Shown: positions 10,755 to 16,203, numbered from the stretch's first letter. The stretch: 24,000 nt of DNA from Bacillota bacterium (GCA_013177945.1 JABLXW010000015.1:31395-55394), one strand, 5' to 3'. Notes: generated by a model from the letters alone, not told the origin. Program-made: numbers and translations.

Positions 10755-10943
10755 TTGATTTACCTTTATCTCAGCGGCCCCCGCAGCTCCAGGGGGGATG
10801 GAGTGCGAGGTAAGTTTGGTTTTTGCCTGCTTTTTGCAAACAAGAGCAAACAAGAGCAAACAAGAGAACCGACCCCTTGTTTTTTCTGTGCAGTCTGACG
10901 CAACAGGAGAACAGGACCGTTCCCTTGTTGCCCTTTGTTGCTC
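10755..10943 (+). repeat. Repeat family copy A (core + hairpin arms; 3 x caaacaagag)
   Basis: It shares cagcggcccccgcagctccaggggggatggagtgcgaggtaagtttggt.tttgcctgctttt.gcaaacaagag...aaccg.ccccttgtt with copies B-E. It fills the whole gap between two convergent vapC genes. Confidence 0.8.
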
Positions 10944-10945
10944 TT

Positions 10946-11407
10946 TCAATATACACGGAGGATGTTCTTTGAAGTTAAGAAAAAATGGCTGTCAAATGTG
11001 AATACATCCTTAATATCAGTTTGCTGCTCTAAAATCACAAAGCTCACGGCATCCACATACGAAATGGCTTGATCACTGTATTTTTTTATTAGACGAAGCG
11101 CTTCTCTTTCAATCTCCGGTGTTGAATAAACCACCTGCAAAAAACTCGTGTTTTCGGCTTCTTTTATGCTCTCCAAAAACCGCAGTGCCGTGCGATAATT
11201 AACATTATAACGAATAAATGTATAAGTTTCAGATATAACAAGGTTGCTGGTAACCTGCACAACCCTGCCGGCAACCATTGCTTTGAAAACTGTTTTGGCC
11301 GTTTCATGGTTGGCATCATGCCTGAGCGCTAACGCAATCCAGGCACCGGTATCTACAAACACCTTATGGCCTGCCATATAAATATCTGTCATGGTTAACC
11401 GACCCAT
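10946..11407 (-). CDS. vapC: PIN-domain toxin VapC
   Basis: KVFVDTGAWIALALRHDANH...SNLVISETYTFI...SYVDAVSFVILE...VFTFDSHF shows the PIN D/E/D/D pattern. ATG 11407 has GAGGGG 7 nt upstream. Alternative ATGs lie at 11392 and 11377. Confidence 0.9.
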   Translation of the reverse strand: MGRLTMTDIYMAGHKVFVDTGAWIALALRHDANHETAKTVFKAMVAGRVVQVTSNLVISETYTFIRYNVNYRTALRFLESIKEAENTSFLQVVYSTPEIEREALRLIKKYSDQAISYVDAVSFVILEQQTDIKDVFTFDSHFFLTSKNILRVY

Positions 11408-11633
11408 CCTGCGGCCCCTCTGTTTCGTCGCTTATGCCGACAATCTCCAGCAGGGGGTTTTCCTGAAGCCTTTTTTTCTCCTGGCTTATGAAATTATCCA
11501 GAGCTTCCCGGATGATCTCAGCCTCCGTTACCATTTTGATCTTTGCCAGCTTCTTCAGCTCTTCATCCTGCTCCGGGAAGATGTATGTCTGTTTCCTCAC
11601 CATGCGTTGAGCCCGCTCCCGGCTACCGCTCAC
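11364..11633 (-). CDS. vapB: Ribbon-helix-helix antitoxin (VapB-like)
   Basis: KQTYIFPEQDEELKKLAKIKMVTEAEIIREALDNFI is an RHH motif, and the C-terminus is HDRYLYG. GTG 11633 is preceded by GGAGGAGG at 6-nt spacing. The ORF-track ATG at 11669 lacks an RBS. Confidence 0.85.
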   Translation of the reverse strand: MSGSRERAQRMVRKQTYIFPEQDEELKKLAKIKMVTEAEIIREALDNFISQEKKRLQENPLLEIVGISDETEGPQDGSVNHDRYLYGRP

Positions 11634-11750
11634 AGCATCCCTCCTCCATTTAGAAATTGTTATATACATTGTAAATTATCGTTTATGATGTTGTCAAACC
11701 ACAAGCAAGCACACCTGCGCGCCACATCCTGGATCAGCACCTTGTAACCA

Positions 11751-11900
11751 GGATTTCCCCAAGCGCCCCCCACAACTTCAGGGGGATGGAGCGCGAGGTA
11801 AGTTTGGTCTTTGCCTGCTTTTCGCAAACAAGAGGACCGTCCCTGTGTTTGTGTAAAGATACCATATTTGCATCCCTTGCCTGCCTCTTGTTGCCCAAGC
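11751..11900 (+). repeat. Repeat family copy B (diverged hairpin)
   Basis: ggatttccccaagcgccccccacaacttcagggggatggagcgcgaggtaagtttggtctttgcctgcttttcgcaaacaagag matches the family core. The right arm is degenerate (gtccctgtgtttgtg ... cttgttgccc). Confidence 0.7.
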
Positions 11901-11940
11901 CGGAGGAATCGGCATCTTGTATCCCGGGCCGGCAAATGTT

Positions 11941-11968
11941 ATACTTGTAGTAATACTTGCAGTAGTAC
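11941..11968 (+). promoter_or_regulatory. Tandem palindromic operator-like sites upstream of the RHH/PIN module
   Basis: atACTTGTAGTAatACTTGCAGTAgtac holds two adjacent TACT-N3-AGTA palindromes, ending 3 nt before the AGGAGG RBS (11971) of the RHH gene. Confidence 0.5.
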
Positions 11969-11984
11969 AAAGGAGGTGCCGGGA

Positions 11985-12266
11985 ATGGGTGAAGGTTCAA
12001 ACAAGAGCAATACCAGCTTAAAAAAACCAAAAAAGCAGGCCTCTCAAATTACGGCGGTGAGACTGCCCTCCGAGGTTGTCTGCCGGATCGACGCCCTTGT
12101 GGGGAGGGGCAACCGCTCCAGGTTCATCGCAGCCGCCGTTGAAAAGGAATTAAAGCGGCGGGCGCGCCTTGCACACCTCGAAGAGGCGGGGGGTTTTATC
12201 CCTGACGACCTGGATGCCTTAGCCTTTGTGAACCGGCTGCGAGCTTGGGATGAGAGGGCTGATTGA
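11985..12266 (+). CDS. vapB: Ribbon-helix-helix (CopG/Arc-type) antitoxin
   Basis: ITAVRLPSEVVCRIDALVGRGNRSRFIAAAVEKEL is an RHH motif. AGGAGG lies 8 nt upstream of ATG 11985. The ORF-track start at 11811 lies inside repeat copy B. Confidence 0.85.
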   Translation: MGEGSNKSNTSLKKPKKQASQITAVRLPSEVVCRIDALVGRGNRSRFIAAAVEKELKRRARLAHLEEAGGFIPDDLDALAFVNRLRAWDERAD

Positions 12267-14331: not shown

Positions 14332-14360
14332 TTCGCATTAGATCAGGAAACTGGTATAAT
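14332..14360 (+). promoter_or_regulatory. Promoter inside the duplicated ~100-bp promoter/leader cassette (copy 1)
   Basis: TTCGCA (14332-14337), a 17-nt spacer, then TATAAT (14355-14360). It is preceded by the hairpin GGCGCaatgtttggggGCGCC. The leader ends in GGAGG, 9 nt before ATG 14411. The same cassette is found at 19047-19153. Confidence 0.6.
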
Positions 14361-14410
14361 ATAACTGATATTAATATAGATGAGAATAAGAATTCGTGGA
14401 GGTTTGTAGC

Positions 14411-14641
14411 ATGGATTTACTGGAGCGTATTACAGTTGATCCTTCTGTCTGTCACGGGAAGGCCTGCATTAAAGGAACAAGGATTCCTGTCAGCGTTATC
14501 TTGGACAACCTGGCCGCAGGAAATAGCAAGGAAGAAATATTAAGAAGTTATCCTTCCCTGACACCTGAAGATATTCAGGCAGCAATTGCCTACGGAGCGA
14601 TGCTGCTAAAGAACGCCATATTGCTCTGTAAAGCTGGGTAG
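14411..14641 (+). CDS. DUF433 domain protein (antitoxin-like)
   Basis: [61 protein letters not shown] is the DUF433 pattern. The RBS is GGAGG. The ORF-track start at 14396 overlaps the RBS. Confidence 0.9.
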
Positions 14642-14985
14642 ATGCCCTTCCTGTTGAAATCGCCTGTCTGCTCAAAGAAGCAGGTTATGAGGCCGAAACG
14701 GTTTGGTCGGAGCAAATTCAGGGGTGTTCCGACATTAAAATTTTAGAGCTTTGTAAGGCTGAAAACTGTGTTCTGGTAACTCTCGATATGGATTTCTCAG
14801 ATATCCGGAGATATCCGCCTGAAAACTATCGAGGAATAATTTTGATTCGAACGCCCTCTCAAAGCAAGGAAAGTGTTATTAATCTCTTCAGAAAAATTAT
14901 TTATCTGCTTCAGCGTTATCAGCTTATTGGATGTTTATGGATAGTACAGGAAAATAGTGTCAGGATTAGAGGGCCAGAGAAATAA
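14632..14985 (+). pseudogene. DUF5615 (Mut7-C/PIN-like) toxin gene lacking a usable start codon
   Basis: The open frame reads [25 protein letters not shown]...CSDIKILELCKAENCVLVTLDMDFSDIRRYPPENYRGIILIR...VRIRGPEK, a full-length DUF5615-like sequence. A TAA lies at 14629. There is no ATG/GTG/TTG in frame before M at 14788. Confidence 0.6.
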
Positions 14986-15107
14986 GGCACTGGTTCATGA
15001 GCAGCTCCAACGGGGGGAGGTGGACGTGCTCCGCCCGTATCTTTTGCTTGAGCGTTACCGGCAATTACTGGAGGATCTCCACGAGCCTTGCCGTTGTGGC
15101 GGAGCGG

Positions 15108-15150
15108 CATGAAGAAAAACCGGTCGGCTGCTGGAAAGTTAAACTTTGCG
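15108..15150 (+). repeat. Short diverged fragment of the repeat family (copy F)
   Basis: gaagaaaaaccggtcggctgctggaaagttaaactttgcgcc resembles gaaaagcagcggcttgctggaaagttgaacttttacgc of copies C and E. Confidence 0.4.
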
Positions 15151-15201
15151 CCTAATTTTCTGTTTTATACTTTATGCTAGAGAAAAATCGGAGTGAGGCT
15201 T

Positions 15202-15546
15202 ATGATTTCCGGCTTGAATCCTTTGCGGGAAACCGATAAAAAGGCTGTCGTGGAGTTCTGCACCCTCCTCCGGAGGAAGCTGAAAGACAACTTGCGGCAG
15301 ATCAGATTGTTCGGCTCTAAGGCCAGGGGAGATGACGACCCCGAGTCGGATATTGACATCCTGCTGCTTGTGGAAAAACGAGATCCTGTTGTAGAAGATC
15401 AAATTATTGACATCGCCTATGAGGTAAGTTTGAAATACGATGTTGTCATGATGCCGGTAGTGCTGTCAGTTGACGAGTATTTGAGTTCCTTATCGAGAGC
15501 CAGCCTTTTTTACCGTCATACTCAAAACGAAGGTCTGGTATTATGA
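15202..15546 (+). CDS. Minimal nucleotidyltransferase (MNT-type)
   Basis: IRLFGSKARGDDDPESDIDILLLV is the NTase motif. The RBS GGAGTGAGG precedes ATG 15202. It has an ATGA overlap with the downstream HEPN ORF. Confidence 0.85.
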   Translation: MISGLNPLRETDKKAVVEFCTLLRRKLKDNLRQIRLFGSKARGDDDPESDIDILLLVEKRDPVVEDQIIDIAYEVSLKYDVVMMPVVLSVDEYLSSLSRASLFYRHTQNEGLVL

Positions 15547-15743
15547 ATGAGGATTTTCTCGCATTGGCTCGGTTTCGCGTGAACAGAGCAAAAGAGACGC
15601 TGTCCGAGACCAGGCTGTTGTTGGATGCCGGGCATCTAAACGGTGCGGTTAACCGCTTGTATTATGCTGCTTTTTATGCCGCCCGTGCTATCCTGGCTAC
15701 CAAAGGGCTCGATTCATCGAAACACAGCGGCGTAGAACAGTAG
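15543..15743 (+). pseudogene. HEPN gene truncated at ~66 codons by repeat copy E
   Basis: FRVNRAKETLSETRLLLDAGHLNGAVNRLYYAAFYAARAILATKGLDSSKHSGV parallels the first half of the intact HEPN at 8017-8421. The last codons and the stop fall in the L arm of the repeat, and the C-terminal R..DY half is missing. Confidence 0.7.
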
Positions 15744-16203
15744 TTCCCTTCTATTTAGACATTTCTCCGAACCCTTCTGATGTATACCCCAGGATGTCGT
15801 CCTGCGTCGCAGCCCCAATGCTTCTTGCATACTTTGGCAATGACGTTAAAGCAAAGGTGGAAAAGCTGCTTTCGATCTTGGGAGACAAACCGGTGCGGTT
15901 CCTGGAGTGCGTAGCCACCACCCATTATGCTTACCGTTCCTGCTCCCTGAGGAAAACAGGTCATTTGCTTCCCTTGAGAAAGTCGTCAGGGGGTCAGGCC
16001 CCATCTCAAGAAAGAAGAAGTCGCGGAGGCTTATGCTGTTCTGAAAAGCAGCGGCTTGCTGGAAAGTTGAACTTTTACGCTCGCGATTTCCCCCAATGGC
16101 CCCCACAGCTCCAGGGGGATGGGGCATGAGGTAAGTTTGGTCTTTGCCTGCTTTTCGCAAACAAGAGAACCGTCCCCTTGTTTGCTACGTCCCCTTGTTT
16201 GCC
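15733..16203 (+). repeat. Repeat family copy E: long composite (L arm + ~160-bp unique insert + long core + hairpin arms)
   Basis: The L arm 15733-15823 matches 14041-14130. The segment 15987-16203 matches 13154-13379. It ends with caaacaagagaaccgtccccttgtttgctacgtccccttgtttgcc. Confidence 0.8.

Follow-up and report, generated by a model that had tools for sequence, protein, structure and literature searches.

A stretch of 24,000 nucleotides from a Bacillota bacterium, referred to here as the window, contains an array of toxin-antitoxin (TA) cassettes which is interrupted several times by the same repeat. A sequence-only reading had described this repeat as a structured family punctuating the cassette boundaries, and had proposed that it may derive from the right end of an IS200/IS605 element or, alternatively, that it serves as a cassette-junction recombination site. 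The question was what the repeat consists of and how it came to be multiplied. It proved to be real, but a patchwork, in which the tail of an antitoxin-like gene is joined by a short linker to an ordinary bacterial REP hairpin, and it is neither a new class of RNA nor a new class of mobile element.

The Repeat Family in the Window

Five plus strand copies (A to E, Table 1) were found at essentially the positions described before. The 27-nucleotide core pattern GAGGYARGTTTGGTYTTTGCCTGCTTT matches at 10807, 11795, 13296, 14193, and 16128 of the plus strand and in none of the dinucleotide shuffles of the window. A pattern for the terminal palindrome, which had no match among the shuffles either, occurs in all five copies and in addition at 5049–5075, where the inverted, hairpin-only copy had been noticed; this lone palindrome carries no core. 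The extents of the copies were set by self-BLAST of the window, and their lengths span about 150 to 470 nucleotides. The earlier count of left-arm units, three in A, two in D, and one each in B, C, and E, is correct, and the right-arm units vary as well, from one to four. Copies C and E have 171 nucleotides in common at 96.5% identity, as the earlier description of a common sequence had indicated, including a tail which ends with GVRPHLKKEEVAEAYAVLKSSGLLES and a stop.

The two toxin genes said to be cut by the repeat are indeed interrupted. The profile match to DUF5615 ends at position 38 of 110, at 13153, and that to HEPN at position 57 of 117, at about 15733; as both matches stop at the repeat, both genes are truncated there. 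The short fragment at 15108–15150 is real, but it is a 3′-truncated remnant of the repeat which keeps only a relic of the gene tail. The proposed punctuation of cassette boundaries holds in so far as the five copies lie between cassettes, but only five of at least 12 boundaries in the window carry one. The TA cassettes on either side of the five copies occur in both orientations. A remnant of TnpB (8715–9011; Cas12f1-like_TNB, E 2.3e-7) is located 1.7 kb upstream of the repeats.

Table 1. Copies, lone palindrome, and relic of the repeat in the 24,000-nucleotide window.
Feature	Position	Strand	Gene part and core	Score (bits)	REP part	Adjoining sequence
Copy A	10773..10943	+	Core truncated at about model position 30 (10773-10835)	86.5	3 left-arm units CAAACAAGAG, loop AACCGACC, 1 degenerate right arm, 36-nt insert, 2 right-arm units	PIN (+) with stop at 10745 on one side, PIN/RHH (-) cassette on the other
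Copy B	11748..11900	+	Core from about model position 17	96.4	11825-11851, single, 3 mismatches; then degenerate right-arm units to CTCTTGTTGCCC	
Copy C	13154..13379	+	Last 85 nt of 181-aa gene (13154-13238); full core (13239-13327)	105.8	13339-13365, then second right-arm unit	Fused to truncated DUF5615 toxin gene
Copy D	14034..14300	+	"Left part" module 14034-14133, stop-codon region of 181-aa gene; full core 14135-14224	107.3	2 left-arm and 4 right-arm units in a cluster	
Copy E (longest)	15734..16203	+	"Left part" 15734-15825; frameshifted 3′ 245 nt of 181-aa gene (15826-16070); core 16071-16159	112.8	16158-16184, then second right-arm unit	Fused to truncated HEPN toxin gene
Lone REP palindrome	5049..5075	-	Without core		Same sequence as family consensus	
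Relic	15108..15150	+	Last codons and stop region of 181-aa gene, 78% identical; without core		None	

The Hairpin Is a REP Element

The palindrome, CAAACAAGAG-AACCGTC-CCCTTGTTTG, is imperfect, 27 to 29 nucleotides long, and built from 10-nucleotide half-site units which vary in number. The 27-nucleotide form has a stem of 10-11 base pairs. Fifty instances were assembled from the retrieved loci of relatives and from the window; 38 match the search pattern exactly, and 33 of these are the identical 27-mer in either orientation. Their flanks are unrelated to each other, and only the positions -1 and +1 beside the 27-mer are constrained, this closing pair being complementary in 74% of the 50 instances, with T-A alternating with G-C. 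The median stop-free span at the REP centres is 114 codons as compared to 319 at random positions, so most copies lie outside genes. The identical sequence is scattered in both orientations through MAGs of Syntrophomonadaceae and other Bacillota, where it adjoins ordinary genes, among them folD, cmk, and a gene for a GGDEF protein, and about 24 exact copies stand beside unrelated genes in the retrieved loci of one fragmentary Syntrophothermus MAG. The palindrome is thus a REP element (repetitive extragenic palindrome) of a dispersed family. Genome-wide, the hairpins of the relatives show no association with cassette boundaries. Six REP copies lie in the window, the stretch of the source genome which was read.

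In three MAGs REP copies adjoin genes of the RAYT type, and two of these genes are bracketed by REPs in inverted orientation. In L024 REPs at 1367 (reverse) and 2239 (forward) enclose a Y1_Tnp gene, in L022 two reverse REPs at 1920–1985 and one forward at 2799 do the same, and in L007 tandem REPs abut a Y1_Tnp gene at its 3′ end. The REP-flanked Y1 genes match Pfam PF01797 at about 1e-16, and the two genes scanned with NCBIfam NF047646 (REP_Tyr_transpos) scored 80.5 and 75.5 bits, so that one reached the cut-off of 80. A Y1 (HUH) tyrosine transposase of the REP-associated type (RAYT) is the cognate protein of the REP in the relatives. RAYTs are domesticated cousins of the IS200 TnpA, and by way of the RAYT the IS200/IS605 link suggested for the hairpin holds, if distantly.

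The family resembles known REP/RAYT systems in its short, highly repeated, mostly extragenic palindrome found in both orientations, in its conserved internal mismatch (here A-C) and conserved loop, and in the inverted copies around a Y1_Tnp gene which attains the REP_Tyr_transpos equivalog level in one of two cases. It differs from them in its host, an uncultured, Syntrophomonadaceae-like member of the Bacillota and not of the Proteobacteria, in that no conserved GTAG-like 5′ tetranucleotide was seen, and in a C-terminal helix-turn-helix extension of the RAYT of the relatives. Unlike the classic inverted doublets of BIMEs and REPINs, most copies, including all of the window, are singlets with reiterated 10-nucleotide half-arms; inverted doublets were encountered in L004 and L021, and pieces of arm plus loop such as GTCCCCTTGTTTGC are reiterated too. 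A further difference is that in the window the REP is joined to a gene flank specific to the lineage, and both have been copied together.

The Core Is a Flank of a Rare Antitoxin-Like Gene

The 5′ part of the module corresponds to the 3′ end of a rare gene for a putative antitoxin of 181 amino acids together with about 50 nucleotides of its 3′ flank, which contains the GC hairpin. This gene is intact in the related contigs L031 and L032, where the core starts directly after the stop codon, L032 having the first half of the core only. Between the gene flank and the REP a conserved linker of about 37 nucleotides, GAGGYARGTTTGGTYTTTGCCTGCTTTTCG, is found which is almost invariant. A copy of the module thus consists of 0–245 nucleotides of the gene end plus the flank, the linker, and the REP. 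The left ends are ragged, and the right end is exactly the last REP arm unit in all copies that keep the hairpin (five in the window, the one of L031, and two in L036). The tail common to copies C and E had been considered the possible 3′ end of an element-encoded gene. It is a gene end, but that of the 181-amino acid antitoxin-like gene and not of tnpB or any transposase, and RuvC or zinc-finger motifs are absent from the protein.

A covariance model of the core matched only the copies of the window, L031, L032, and one fragment from the source sample, and had no match in 29 REP-bearing loci. The exact core pattern was found in none of 185,579 species genomes and once in a metagenome collection, and the core does not follow the gene's more distant homologues. 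Judged by the window, its fragmentary relatives, and these collection scans, the 5′ core appears to be restricted to the TA island of one lineage.

RNA Structure of the Core

The core and palindrome are predicted to form three separate hairpins. The fold z-scores of the plus strand range from -0.4 to -2.5 and fall below -2 in copy D only; the terminal palindrome aside, the core folds no better than shuffled sequence in four of the five copies. The description of the family as structured is therefore valid for the palindrome, but for most copies not for the core. Compensatory changes in the stems, which had been proposed as a check, were not significant: paired changes on both sides affect one of 21 pairs of the core, and the observed covariation score was reached by 104 of 500 shuffles. 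In a weak, predicted 12-base-pair, G-U-rich hairpin of the linker six of six transitions, all one-sided, retain G-U or Watson-Crick pairing, and do so on the plus strand only, which gives a faint hint of constraint at the RNA level. No family of Rfam 15 reached its gathering score, and even at E<=5 no relevant match appeared. Findings of this kind had been named in the sequence-only reading as speaking against it, and for the most part they are what was obtained, as the hairpins of the relatives are not linked to boundaries, covariation is not significant, and the core is limited to the lineage of one TA locus.

The TA Island in Close Relatives

In close relatives (L036 and L033/L038) the cassettes of the window recur in other orders. 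Composites number one or two there, some have internal deletions, and toxin genes are interrupted at other positions. The contig L036 is 97% identical to window positions 606–9536, keeps the lone REP at the equivalent place, and has only two composites, of which one is full and the other deleted internally. The right junction of copy B is orthologous to the full one, VapB being next in both. The window and L036 differ by a 1,023-bp cassette indel adjoining the lone REP, and window positions 6562–8126 are absent from L036. A residual GGTTGCCC arm unit is left in the window at the indel, which suggests a deletion that stopped within the arm array rather than a precise excision. The copy L036-1 is without the entire linker, copy A without the 5′ arm of the first hairpin, and in L038 the gene tail is joined directly to right-arm units of the REP. 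The same VapBC-like cassette, followed by a degenerate composite, occurs in two different contexts, L036 and L038. In L033 DUF5615 is cut at two other positions, with core and REP absent nearby.

Alternative Explanations

It is rather unlikely that the cassettes are mobilised by a RAYT, an HUH enzyme, with the right-end REP as a single-stranded DNA recombination site which is cut and rejoined, and with units of a TA cassette plus composite excised and inserted beside other REPs in an integron-like manner. The constant right boundary with variable left ends, the common orientation of all five copies whatever that of the cassettes, the VapBC-like cassette in two contexts, and the reiterated GTCCCCTTGTTTGC-type pieces, as errors of nicking and rejoining might yield, would suit such a process, as would the similarity of REPs to IS200/IS605 subterminal hairpins and their cleavage by their Y1 transposases in E. 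coli according to PMC3333891. The window, however, has no RAYT gene, no left end is defined and no target motif conserved, the sole indel between close relatives is unlike precise excision, relatives scramble the same cassettes without any REP, and modules truncated at the 3′ side exist too (window 15108, L032). For five of five copies in the same direction, the two-sided probability is only about 0.06. A functional plus strand RNA selected between TA cassettes, be it a 3′-UTR stabiliser, a terminator or insulator, or a small RNA, whose structure would be the hairpins of core and linker, is unlikely. The near invariance of the linker, its pairing-retaining changes, the position of copies A, C, and E directly downstream of plus strand TA genes, and the stabilisation of upstream mRNA by REPs in other bacteria described in PMC3479197 are consistent with it. 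Against it stand, besides the results of folding, covariation, and Rfam, the position of B and D upstream of divergent promoters, where a plus strand transcript is not expected, the deletions in L036-1 and copy A, and the lack of the core behind more distant homologues of the gene.

A PATE-like element derived from an IS200/IS605 right end or omega RNA is very improbable, and this reading is largely refuted. Its layout of a gene 3′ end, GC hairpins, and a subterminal hairpin is similar, the TnpB remnant is near, and the hairpin family is linked to relatives of Y1 transposases. Yet the gene is not tnpB, core and TnpB tail (8900–9060) have no similarity by BLAST or covariance model, and the left ends are ragged. 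In IS200/IS605 the left-end and right-end hairpins are direct, whereas those flanking the Y1 genes here are inverted, the REP/RAYT arrangement. Least probable of all is a site of the integron attC (CALIN) type or another tyrosine-recombinase core site with 11-bp arms and a spacer of about 7 nucleotides. Cassettes of about 1 kb separated by co-oriented, hairpin-forming sites, TA cassettes that face either way like those of chromosomal integrons, and the arm-spacer-arm geometry of the palindrome recall CALINs rich in TA cassettes. However, neither IntI nor any other integrase or recombinase family was found among the ORFs scanned with Pfam (most of those of at least 100 amino acids), R and L box consensus sequences are missing (GTTTGCC does not fit GTTRRRY, and RYYYAAC is absent), and three separate hairpins with a gene remnant take the place of one long imperfect R″-L″/L′-R′ hairpin. 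The palindrome is also scattered singly beside housekeeping genes in both orientations, and the enzyme associated with it is of the Y1 HUH kind and not a tyrosine recombinase, so the attC reading is largely refuted as well. Of the earlier idea of a cassette-junction recombination site no more survives than a homology patch, and relatives which scramble the same cassettes without the repeat weaken it further. A MITE does not fit the unequal lengths of the copies, and in the window copies neither flanking duplications nor terminal inverted repeats that enclose the unit were seen.

Proposed Origin and Spread of the Module

The explanation we favour, and consider fairly probable, is that the TA island is decaying and that homologous and illegitimate recombination within it both amplified and eroded a junction module. 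At first the module would have been the flank 3′ of a single TA-type cassette, one which had acquired a REP. RecA-type recombination among the copies may then have increased their number in the island, either by unequal crossing-over or by cassette circles excised and reintegrated. Illegitimate deletions would then have removed toxin 3′ ends and the 5′ part of the module to different depths. If this mechanism is true, the present copies are homology patches of about 60–170 bp at 82–96% identity through which cassettes keep being shuffled. The variation in unit number is most simply attributed to replication slippage on a hairpin with a 10-nucleotide register. By analogy with other REPs, the hairpins probably also act as 3′-end stabilisers or insulators of plus strand TA transcripts.

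Several observations count against this explanation. Constant right ends together with ragged left ends are an asymmetry which purely random duplication does not predict. In addition, the composites are more alike than the cassettes which they adjoin, as C and E show, whose neighbours DUF5615 and HEPN are unrelated, and this points to recent duplication or gene conversion that involved just the module. The near invariance of the linker and the faint hint of RNA-level constraint in its hairpin also tell against it. In comparison with degenerating TA islands, the locus has the mosaic cassettes, truncated toxins, common promoter/terminator modules, and cassette order differing among close relatives; it differs in that one REP-bearing junction module is overrepresented and its right end always kept. 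Further duplications in the window are those of 10642–10750 with 19809–19915 and of 14307–14403 with 19048–19155.

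Repeat copies and their cassettes

Five copies of the repeat, all on the plus strand, were found in the toxin-antitoxin (TA) island of the window. This bears out the sequence-only reading, which had claimed five copies in one orientation: on that strand the 27-nt core pattern GAGGYARGTTTGGTYTTTGCCTGCTTT has five matches (10807, 11795, 13296, 14193, and 16128), against none in dinucleotide-preserving shuffles of the window, and the extents of the copies were reproduced by self-BLAST and by a repeat finder. The palindrome CAAACAAGAG-AACCGTC-CCCTTGTTTG stands 3' of each of the five cores, and a sixth palindrome, inverted and without a core, occupies 5049-5075. 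In self-BLAST copies C and E share 171 nt at 96.5% identity. The left-arm unit counts first read off the sequence (three in A, two in D, and one in B, C, and E) are correct; right-arm units vary among the copies from one to four. Pfam annotation agrees with that reading in placing the copies between TA cassettes and in cutting two toxin genes at copies, where DUF5615 ends at 13153 and HEPN at about 15733. The window has at least 12 cassette boundaries, and a copy is present at only five of them.

Repeat copies, cassettes, and duplicated segments of the TA island (window coordinates)
Feature	Position	Strand	Source
Copy A	10773-10943	+	self-BLAST, repeat finder
Copy B	11748-11900	+	self-BLAST, repeat finder
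Copy C	13154-13379	+	self-BLAST, repeat finder
Copy D	14034-14300	+	self-BLAST, repeat finder
Copy E	15734-16203	+	self-BLAST, repeat finder
PIN/MazE cassette	10070-10745		Pfam
PIN/RHH cassette	10946-11669	-	Pfam
VapBC-like cassette	11811-12668		Pfam
DUF433/DUF5615 cassette	two occurrences among repeat copies		Pfam
DUF2283 pair	13428-13969	-	Pfam
NTase/HEPN cassette	among repeat copies		Pfam
Duplicated PIN 3' end	10642-10750 = 19809-19915
Duplicated promoter module	14307-14403 = 19048-19155
Duplicated 'left part'	14034-14133 = 15734-15827
DUF1848 fragments, non-colinear order	9850-9892 and 19691-19809

Identity of the hairpin

The link to a REP-associated Y1 tyrosine transposase (RAYT) gene in relatives decisively identifies the hairpin as a repetitive extragenic palindrome (REP) element. 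Inverted REPs bracket a gene of 254-269 amino acids in L024 (a Syntrophothermus sp. locus) and L022 (a Syntrophomonas sp. locus), and in a further locus, L007, tandem REPs adjoin a third Y1_Tnp gene. The REP-flanked genes match Pfam Y1_Tnp at about 1e-16. The NCBIfam scan took in two of them, and those of L024 and L022 scored 80.5 and 75.5 bits against the equivalog REP_Tyr_transpos, for which the cut-off is 80. Such an arrangement is what defines RAYT/REP systems: a RAYT is typically a single-copy gene between repeats whose spread is attributed to it, and Clostridia are among the hosts of group 1 RAYTs (PMC5581495).

A pattern scan for the palindrome in 185,579 species-representative genomes yielded 28 loci, nearly all of them in Syntrophomonadaceae MAGs and the few remaining ones in other Bacillota or Clostridia MAGs; viral contigs gave no match. 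A single fragmentary Syntrophothermus MAG contributes about 24 exact copies among the loci fetched. In these MAGs an identical 27-mer, including the loop and an internal A-C mismatch, occurs singly and in either orientation; its flanks are unrelated, and the 5' core is absent. The REPs are mainly extragenic, the median stop-free span being 114 codons at the REP centre as compared to 319 at random positions, and beside them lie ordinary genes, among them folD, cmk, and genes for a GGDEF protein and for a metallo-beta-lactamase-fold protein. Covariation is seen in the base pair that immediately flanks the 27-mer (T-A 15, G-C 11, T-G 7, and G-T 4; 74% complementary in 50 instances).

Half-arms such as ...GTTTGgtccccttgtttg... 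are reiterated at REPs of other MAGs too (L022, L025, L023, and L015), so the variable unit number is a property of the REP family and not of the TA array. The arms are reiterated in a strict register of 10-11 nt, one helical turn (window 10836-10943 and 14222-14300; L022 2799-2840; L025 60-130), and sometimes include the last loop bases (GTCCCCTTGTTTGC). Slippage would account for this reiteration most simply; alternatively, the arms could be arrays of binding sites for the C-terminal helix-turn-helix domain of the RAYT.

The identical 27-nt REP (loci L003-L030) is found in MAGs labelled Syntrophothermus, Syntrophomonas, 'Bacillota', 'Clostridia', and even 'Deltaproteobacteria', and the EpsC-like protein of the window is nearer to Thermacetogeniaceae and Moorella (55-67%) than to Syntrophomonadaceae (52-54%). 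Together these observations hint that the RAYT/REP pair has spread horizontally, or that MAGs were mis-binned.

Origin of the core and the linker

An intact gene for a 181-amino-acid putative antitoxin is present in L031, the one match to the exact core pattern among metagenome contigs, and in L032, a Logan contig. Its last codons are the ...LKPHLKKEEVAEA...LL(K/E)S* tail of copies C and E, and the core follows directly after the stop in both contigs. The final 85 nt of the gene make up window 13154-13238 in copy C, its frameshifted 3' 245 nt window 15826-16070 in copy E, and a relic of its stop region, without core or REP, window 15108-15150. The protein family is rare, with seven homologues among 5.8 billion sequences, and is not a transposase. 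The protein matches the C-terminal part of the NCBIfam DarG model at 1.4e-5, far below the cut-off, and its homologue P0003 gives a sub-threshold match to Pfam SocA_Panacea (E 0.2).

L032 has just the first half of the core, up to GGGGGATGAG, with a DUF433 fragment and a DUF1848 gene after it. As the core stops at this point, the CCCCC...GGGGG hairpin region is the 3' flank of the 181-amino-acid gene itself. The 37-nt linker and the REP are additions after this flank, seen only in the window lineage. A covariance model of the core (R1) matches only the five window copies, L031, L032, and one source-sample fragment, and detected no diverged core in 29 other REP-bearing loci. The exact core pattern is absent from species-representative genomes and from viral contigs, and copy E had no BLAST match among plasmids and phages. 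A derivation of the linker from decayed REP arms was rejected, the best local alignment score being equalled by 393 of 2000 shuffles.

A 'left part' module of about 95 nt, present twice in the window and also in L031 (182-282) and in the close relative L036 (about 15210-15240), meets the remnant of the 181-amino-acid gene at a different position in each copy. Its minus strand reads as a short conserved peptide (...SIGAATQDDI.GY...), to which no gene was matched.

RNA and coding potential of the core

The core lacks the behaviour expected of a structural RNA: its plus-strand fold z-scores range from -0.4 to -2.5, a single pair is changed on both sides, and 104 of 500 shuffles reach the observed covariation score. 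A faint counter-hint comes from the weak, G-U-rich linker hairpin, in which six of six one-sided transitions keep plus-strand pairing. Rfam yielded nothing relevant, either in the whole window at gathering scores or in 10000-17000 at E<=5, and the window holds no tRNA or tmRNA genes. No consistent promoter was predicted in the core, and the terminator-like predictions, all on the minus strand, are limited to the REP hairpins of copies A and D. An ATG inside the core (MECEVSLVFACF...) opens a short hydrophobic reading frame (M[EG][CHR]EVSLVFACFSQTR...) in four of the five copies (A, B, D, and E; window 16119-16238). It was rejected as a conserved peptide and is probably not a gene, because copy C has no start codon and the frame enters the variable REP arms.

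Rearrangement of the island

L036 (GCA_020725365.1) matches window 606-9536 at 97% identity and has the lone REP at 5049 in common with it. Beside this REP it holds an extra 1,023 bp consisting of a VapBC-like cassette, relics of an NTase and the 'left part', a linker-less composite, and a forward REP. An insertion ending at the REP is less likely, since one GGTTGCCC arm unit is kept at the site in the window; the difference is most simply read as a deletion which took place in the window lineage and ended inside the arm array. L036 also lacks window 6562-8126 (NTase/HEPN cassettes, about 1.56 kb; junction at L036 17111/17112). The breakpoints fall within paralogous HEPN genes, and the difference fits recombination between them. 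The only full composite of L036 keeps the gene tail from about -130 and precedes VapB, exactly as copy B does. A TnpB C-terminal remnant (window 8715-9011, plus strand; Cas12f1-like_TNB domain, HADxNAAxNI motif, GC hairpin tail) and the adjoining DUF1657 gene (9062-9286, minus strand) are both conserved in L036.

In another close relative, GCA_029907475.1, one contig (L038) has the gene tail joined directly to REP right-arm units and a HicB promoter module, which is an internally deleted composite. A second contig (L033) has the same cassettes in scrambled order; DUF5615 is cut there at two sites that differ from the one in the window, and neither a core nor a REP lies close by. Taken with L036 and the duplications in the window, these contigs indicate that toxin truncation and ragged module ends are general traits of these islands which do not require the repeat.

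The promoter module of about 100 nt (TATAAT, upstream TG) is common to the DUF433/DUF5615 and HicBA cassettes and in L038 (13253-13375) directly follows REP arm units; promoters are exchanged between cassettes as modules. The two DUF1848 fragments belong to one gene, intact in L032; they are separated by about 10 kb and reversed in order, and each precedes a copy of the same PIN 3' end directly or at some distance. As the whole repeat array is bracketed by this DUF1848/PIN duplication, a large duplication or rearrangement is suggested to have created the repeat-bearing region. A candidate defence operon (window 19908-24000, minus strand; also in L001, a source-sample contig, and in L038) adjoins the TA island. 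It comprises a SIR2_2-domain protein, a 223-amino-acid protein, and a 762-amino-acid SMC/AAA_23-type ATPase, and is 93-95% conserved in GCA_029907475.1.

Discussion

The anatomy of the composite, the link of REP and RAYT in relatives, the limitation of the core to the lineage, and the polymorphism of the island, all directly observed, describe a REP family of uncultured Bacillota which has been joined to the flank of a gene and has multiplied locally within a TA island. The hairpin agrees with REP/RAYT systems in its palindrome, its dispersed extragenic copies, and its inverted copies round a RAYT gene. For a GTAG-type foot motif and for doublet organisation the picture is mixed: at the foot of the hairpin constraint is limited to positions -1 and +1, and inverted doublets occur in L004 and L021, but the majority of REPs, all those of the window included, are singlets whose arms are reiterated. 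The sequence-only reading was right about the repeat family and only in part about its interpretation, which had favoured an IS200/IS605 right end or omega-RNA (PATE-like) element. Subterminal hairpins of IS200/IS605 do resemble REPs (PMC3333891). The gene tail of the repeat, however, is not tnpB, no sequence similarity to the local TnpB remnant was found, a left end is not defined, and hairpins at IS200/IS605 ends are direct whereas those round the Y1 gene are inverted, so this assignment was abandoned. An attC site is at odds with the failing R-box consensus, the multi-hairpin structure of the repeat, and the scattering of the palindrome beside housekeeping genes; no recombinase family was matched by Pfam among the scanned ORFs of the window. 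Terminal inverted repeats and target-site duplications, as expected of a MITE, are absent, and the lengths vary from about 150 to 470 nt.

The composite probably originated as the 3' flank of one cassette that had acquired a REP, and was probably amplified by recombination between copies, through unequal crossing-over or through excision and re-integration of cassette circles; stretches of 60-170 bp at 82-96% identity are an adequate substrate. Trimming would be due to illegitimate deletions, tolerated because they remove toxins. Passive recombination of this kind does not fully explain that the hairpin-retaining copies all end exactly at the last REP arm unit while their left ends vary, and that the modules are more alike among themselves than the neighbouring cassettes are. 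Part of this is observation bias: any deletion that runs across the REP also removes the module from view, and relics truncated at the 3' end are indeed present at 15108 and in L032. It is unlikely that the REP or the RAYT has a part in setting the right-hand breakpoint. Still more improbable is that REP and a domesticated Y1 transposase form a single-strand, hairpin-based, integron-like cassette recombination system, in which units of a TA operon with its REP-bearing tail would be cut where the REP arm array ends and joined again next to other REPs. If true, it would be a HUH-enzyme analogue of the integron and a concrete genome-structuring function for RAYTs, and only through this unproven idea of a RAYT moving cassettes by their REP ends would the feature gain greater significance.

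With passive recombination as the preferred account, a REP joined to the flank of a gene can turn into the dominant patch of homology by which a TA island is reshuffled and eroded. A seemingly exotic structured repeat family is now placed in the known REP/RAYT class, in poorly studied uncultured anaerobic Bacillota. This is of value for annotation, as such repeats could be confused with attC sites, omega RNAs, or small RNAs and they break short-read assemblies. Short-read contigs of the source sample (L001, L002, and L037; Logan SRR6186653) break exactly inside composites, so the repeats fragment assemblies of the source organism. Exact-protein look-ups along the contigs of relatives returned mostly short source-sample fragments breaking at repeats, and L002 begins at position 68 of the core in copy B and stops where copy C starts.
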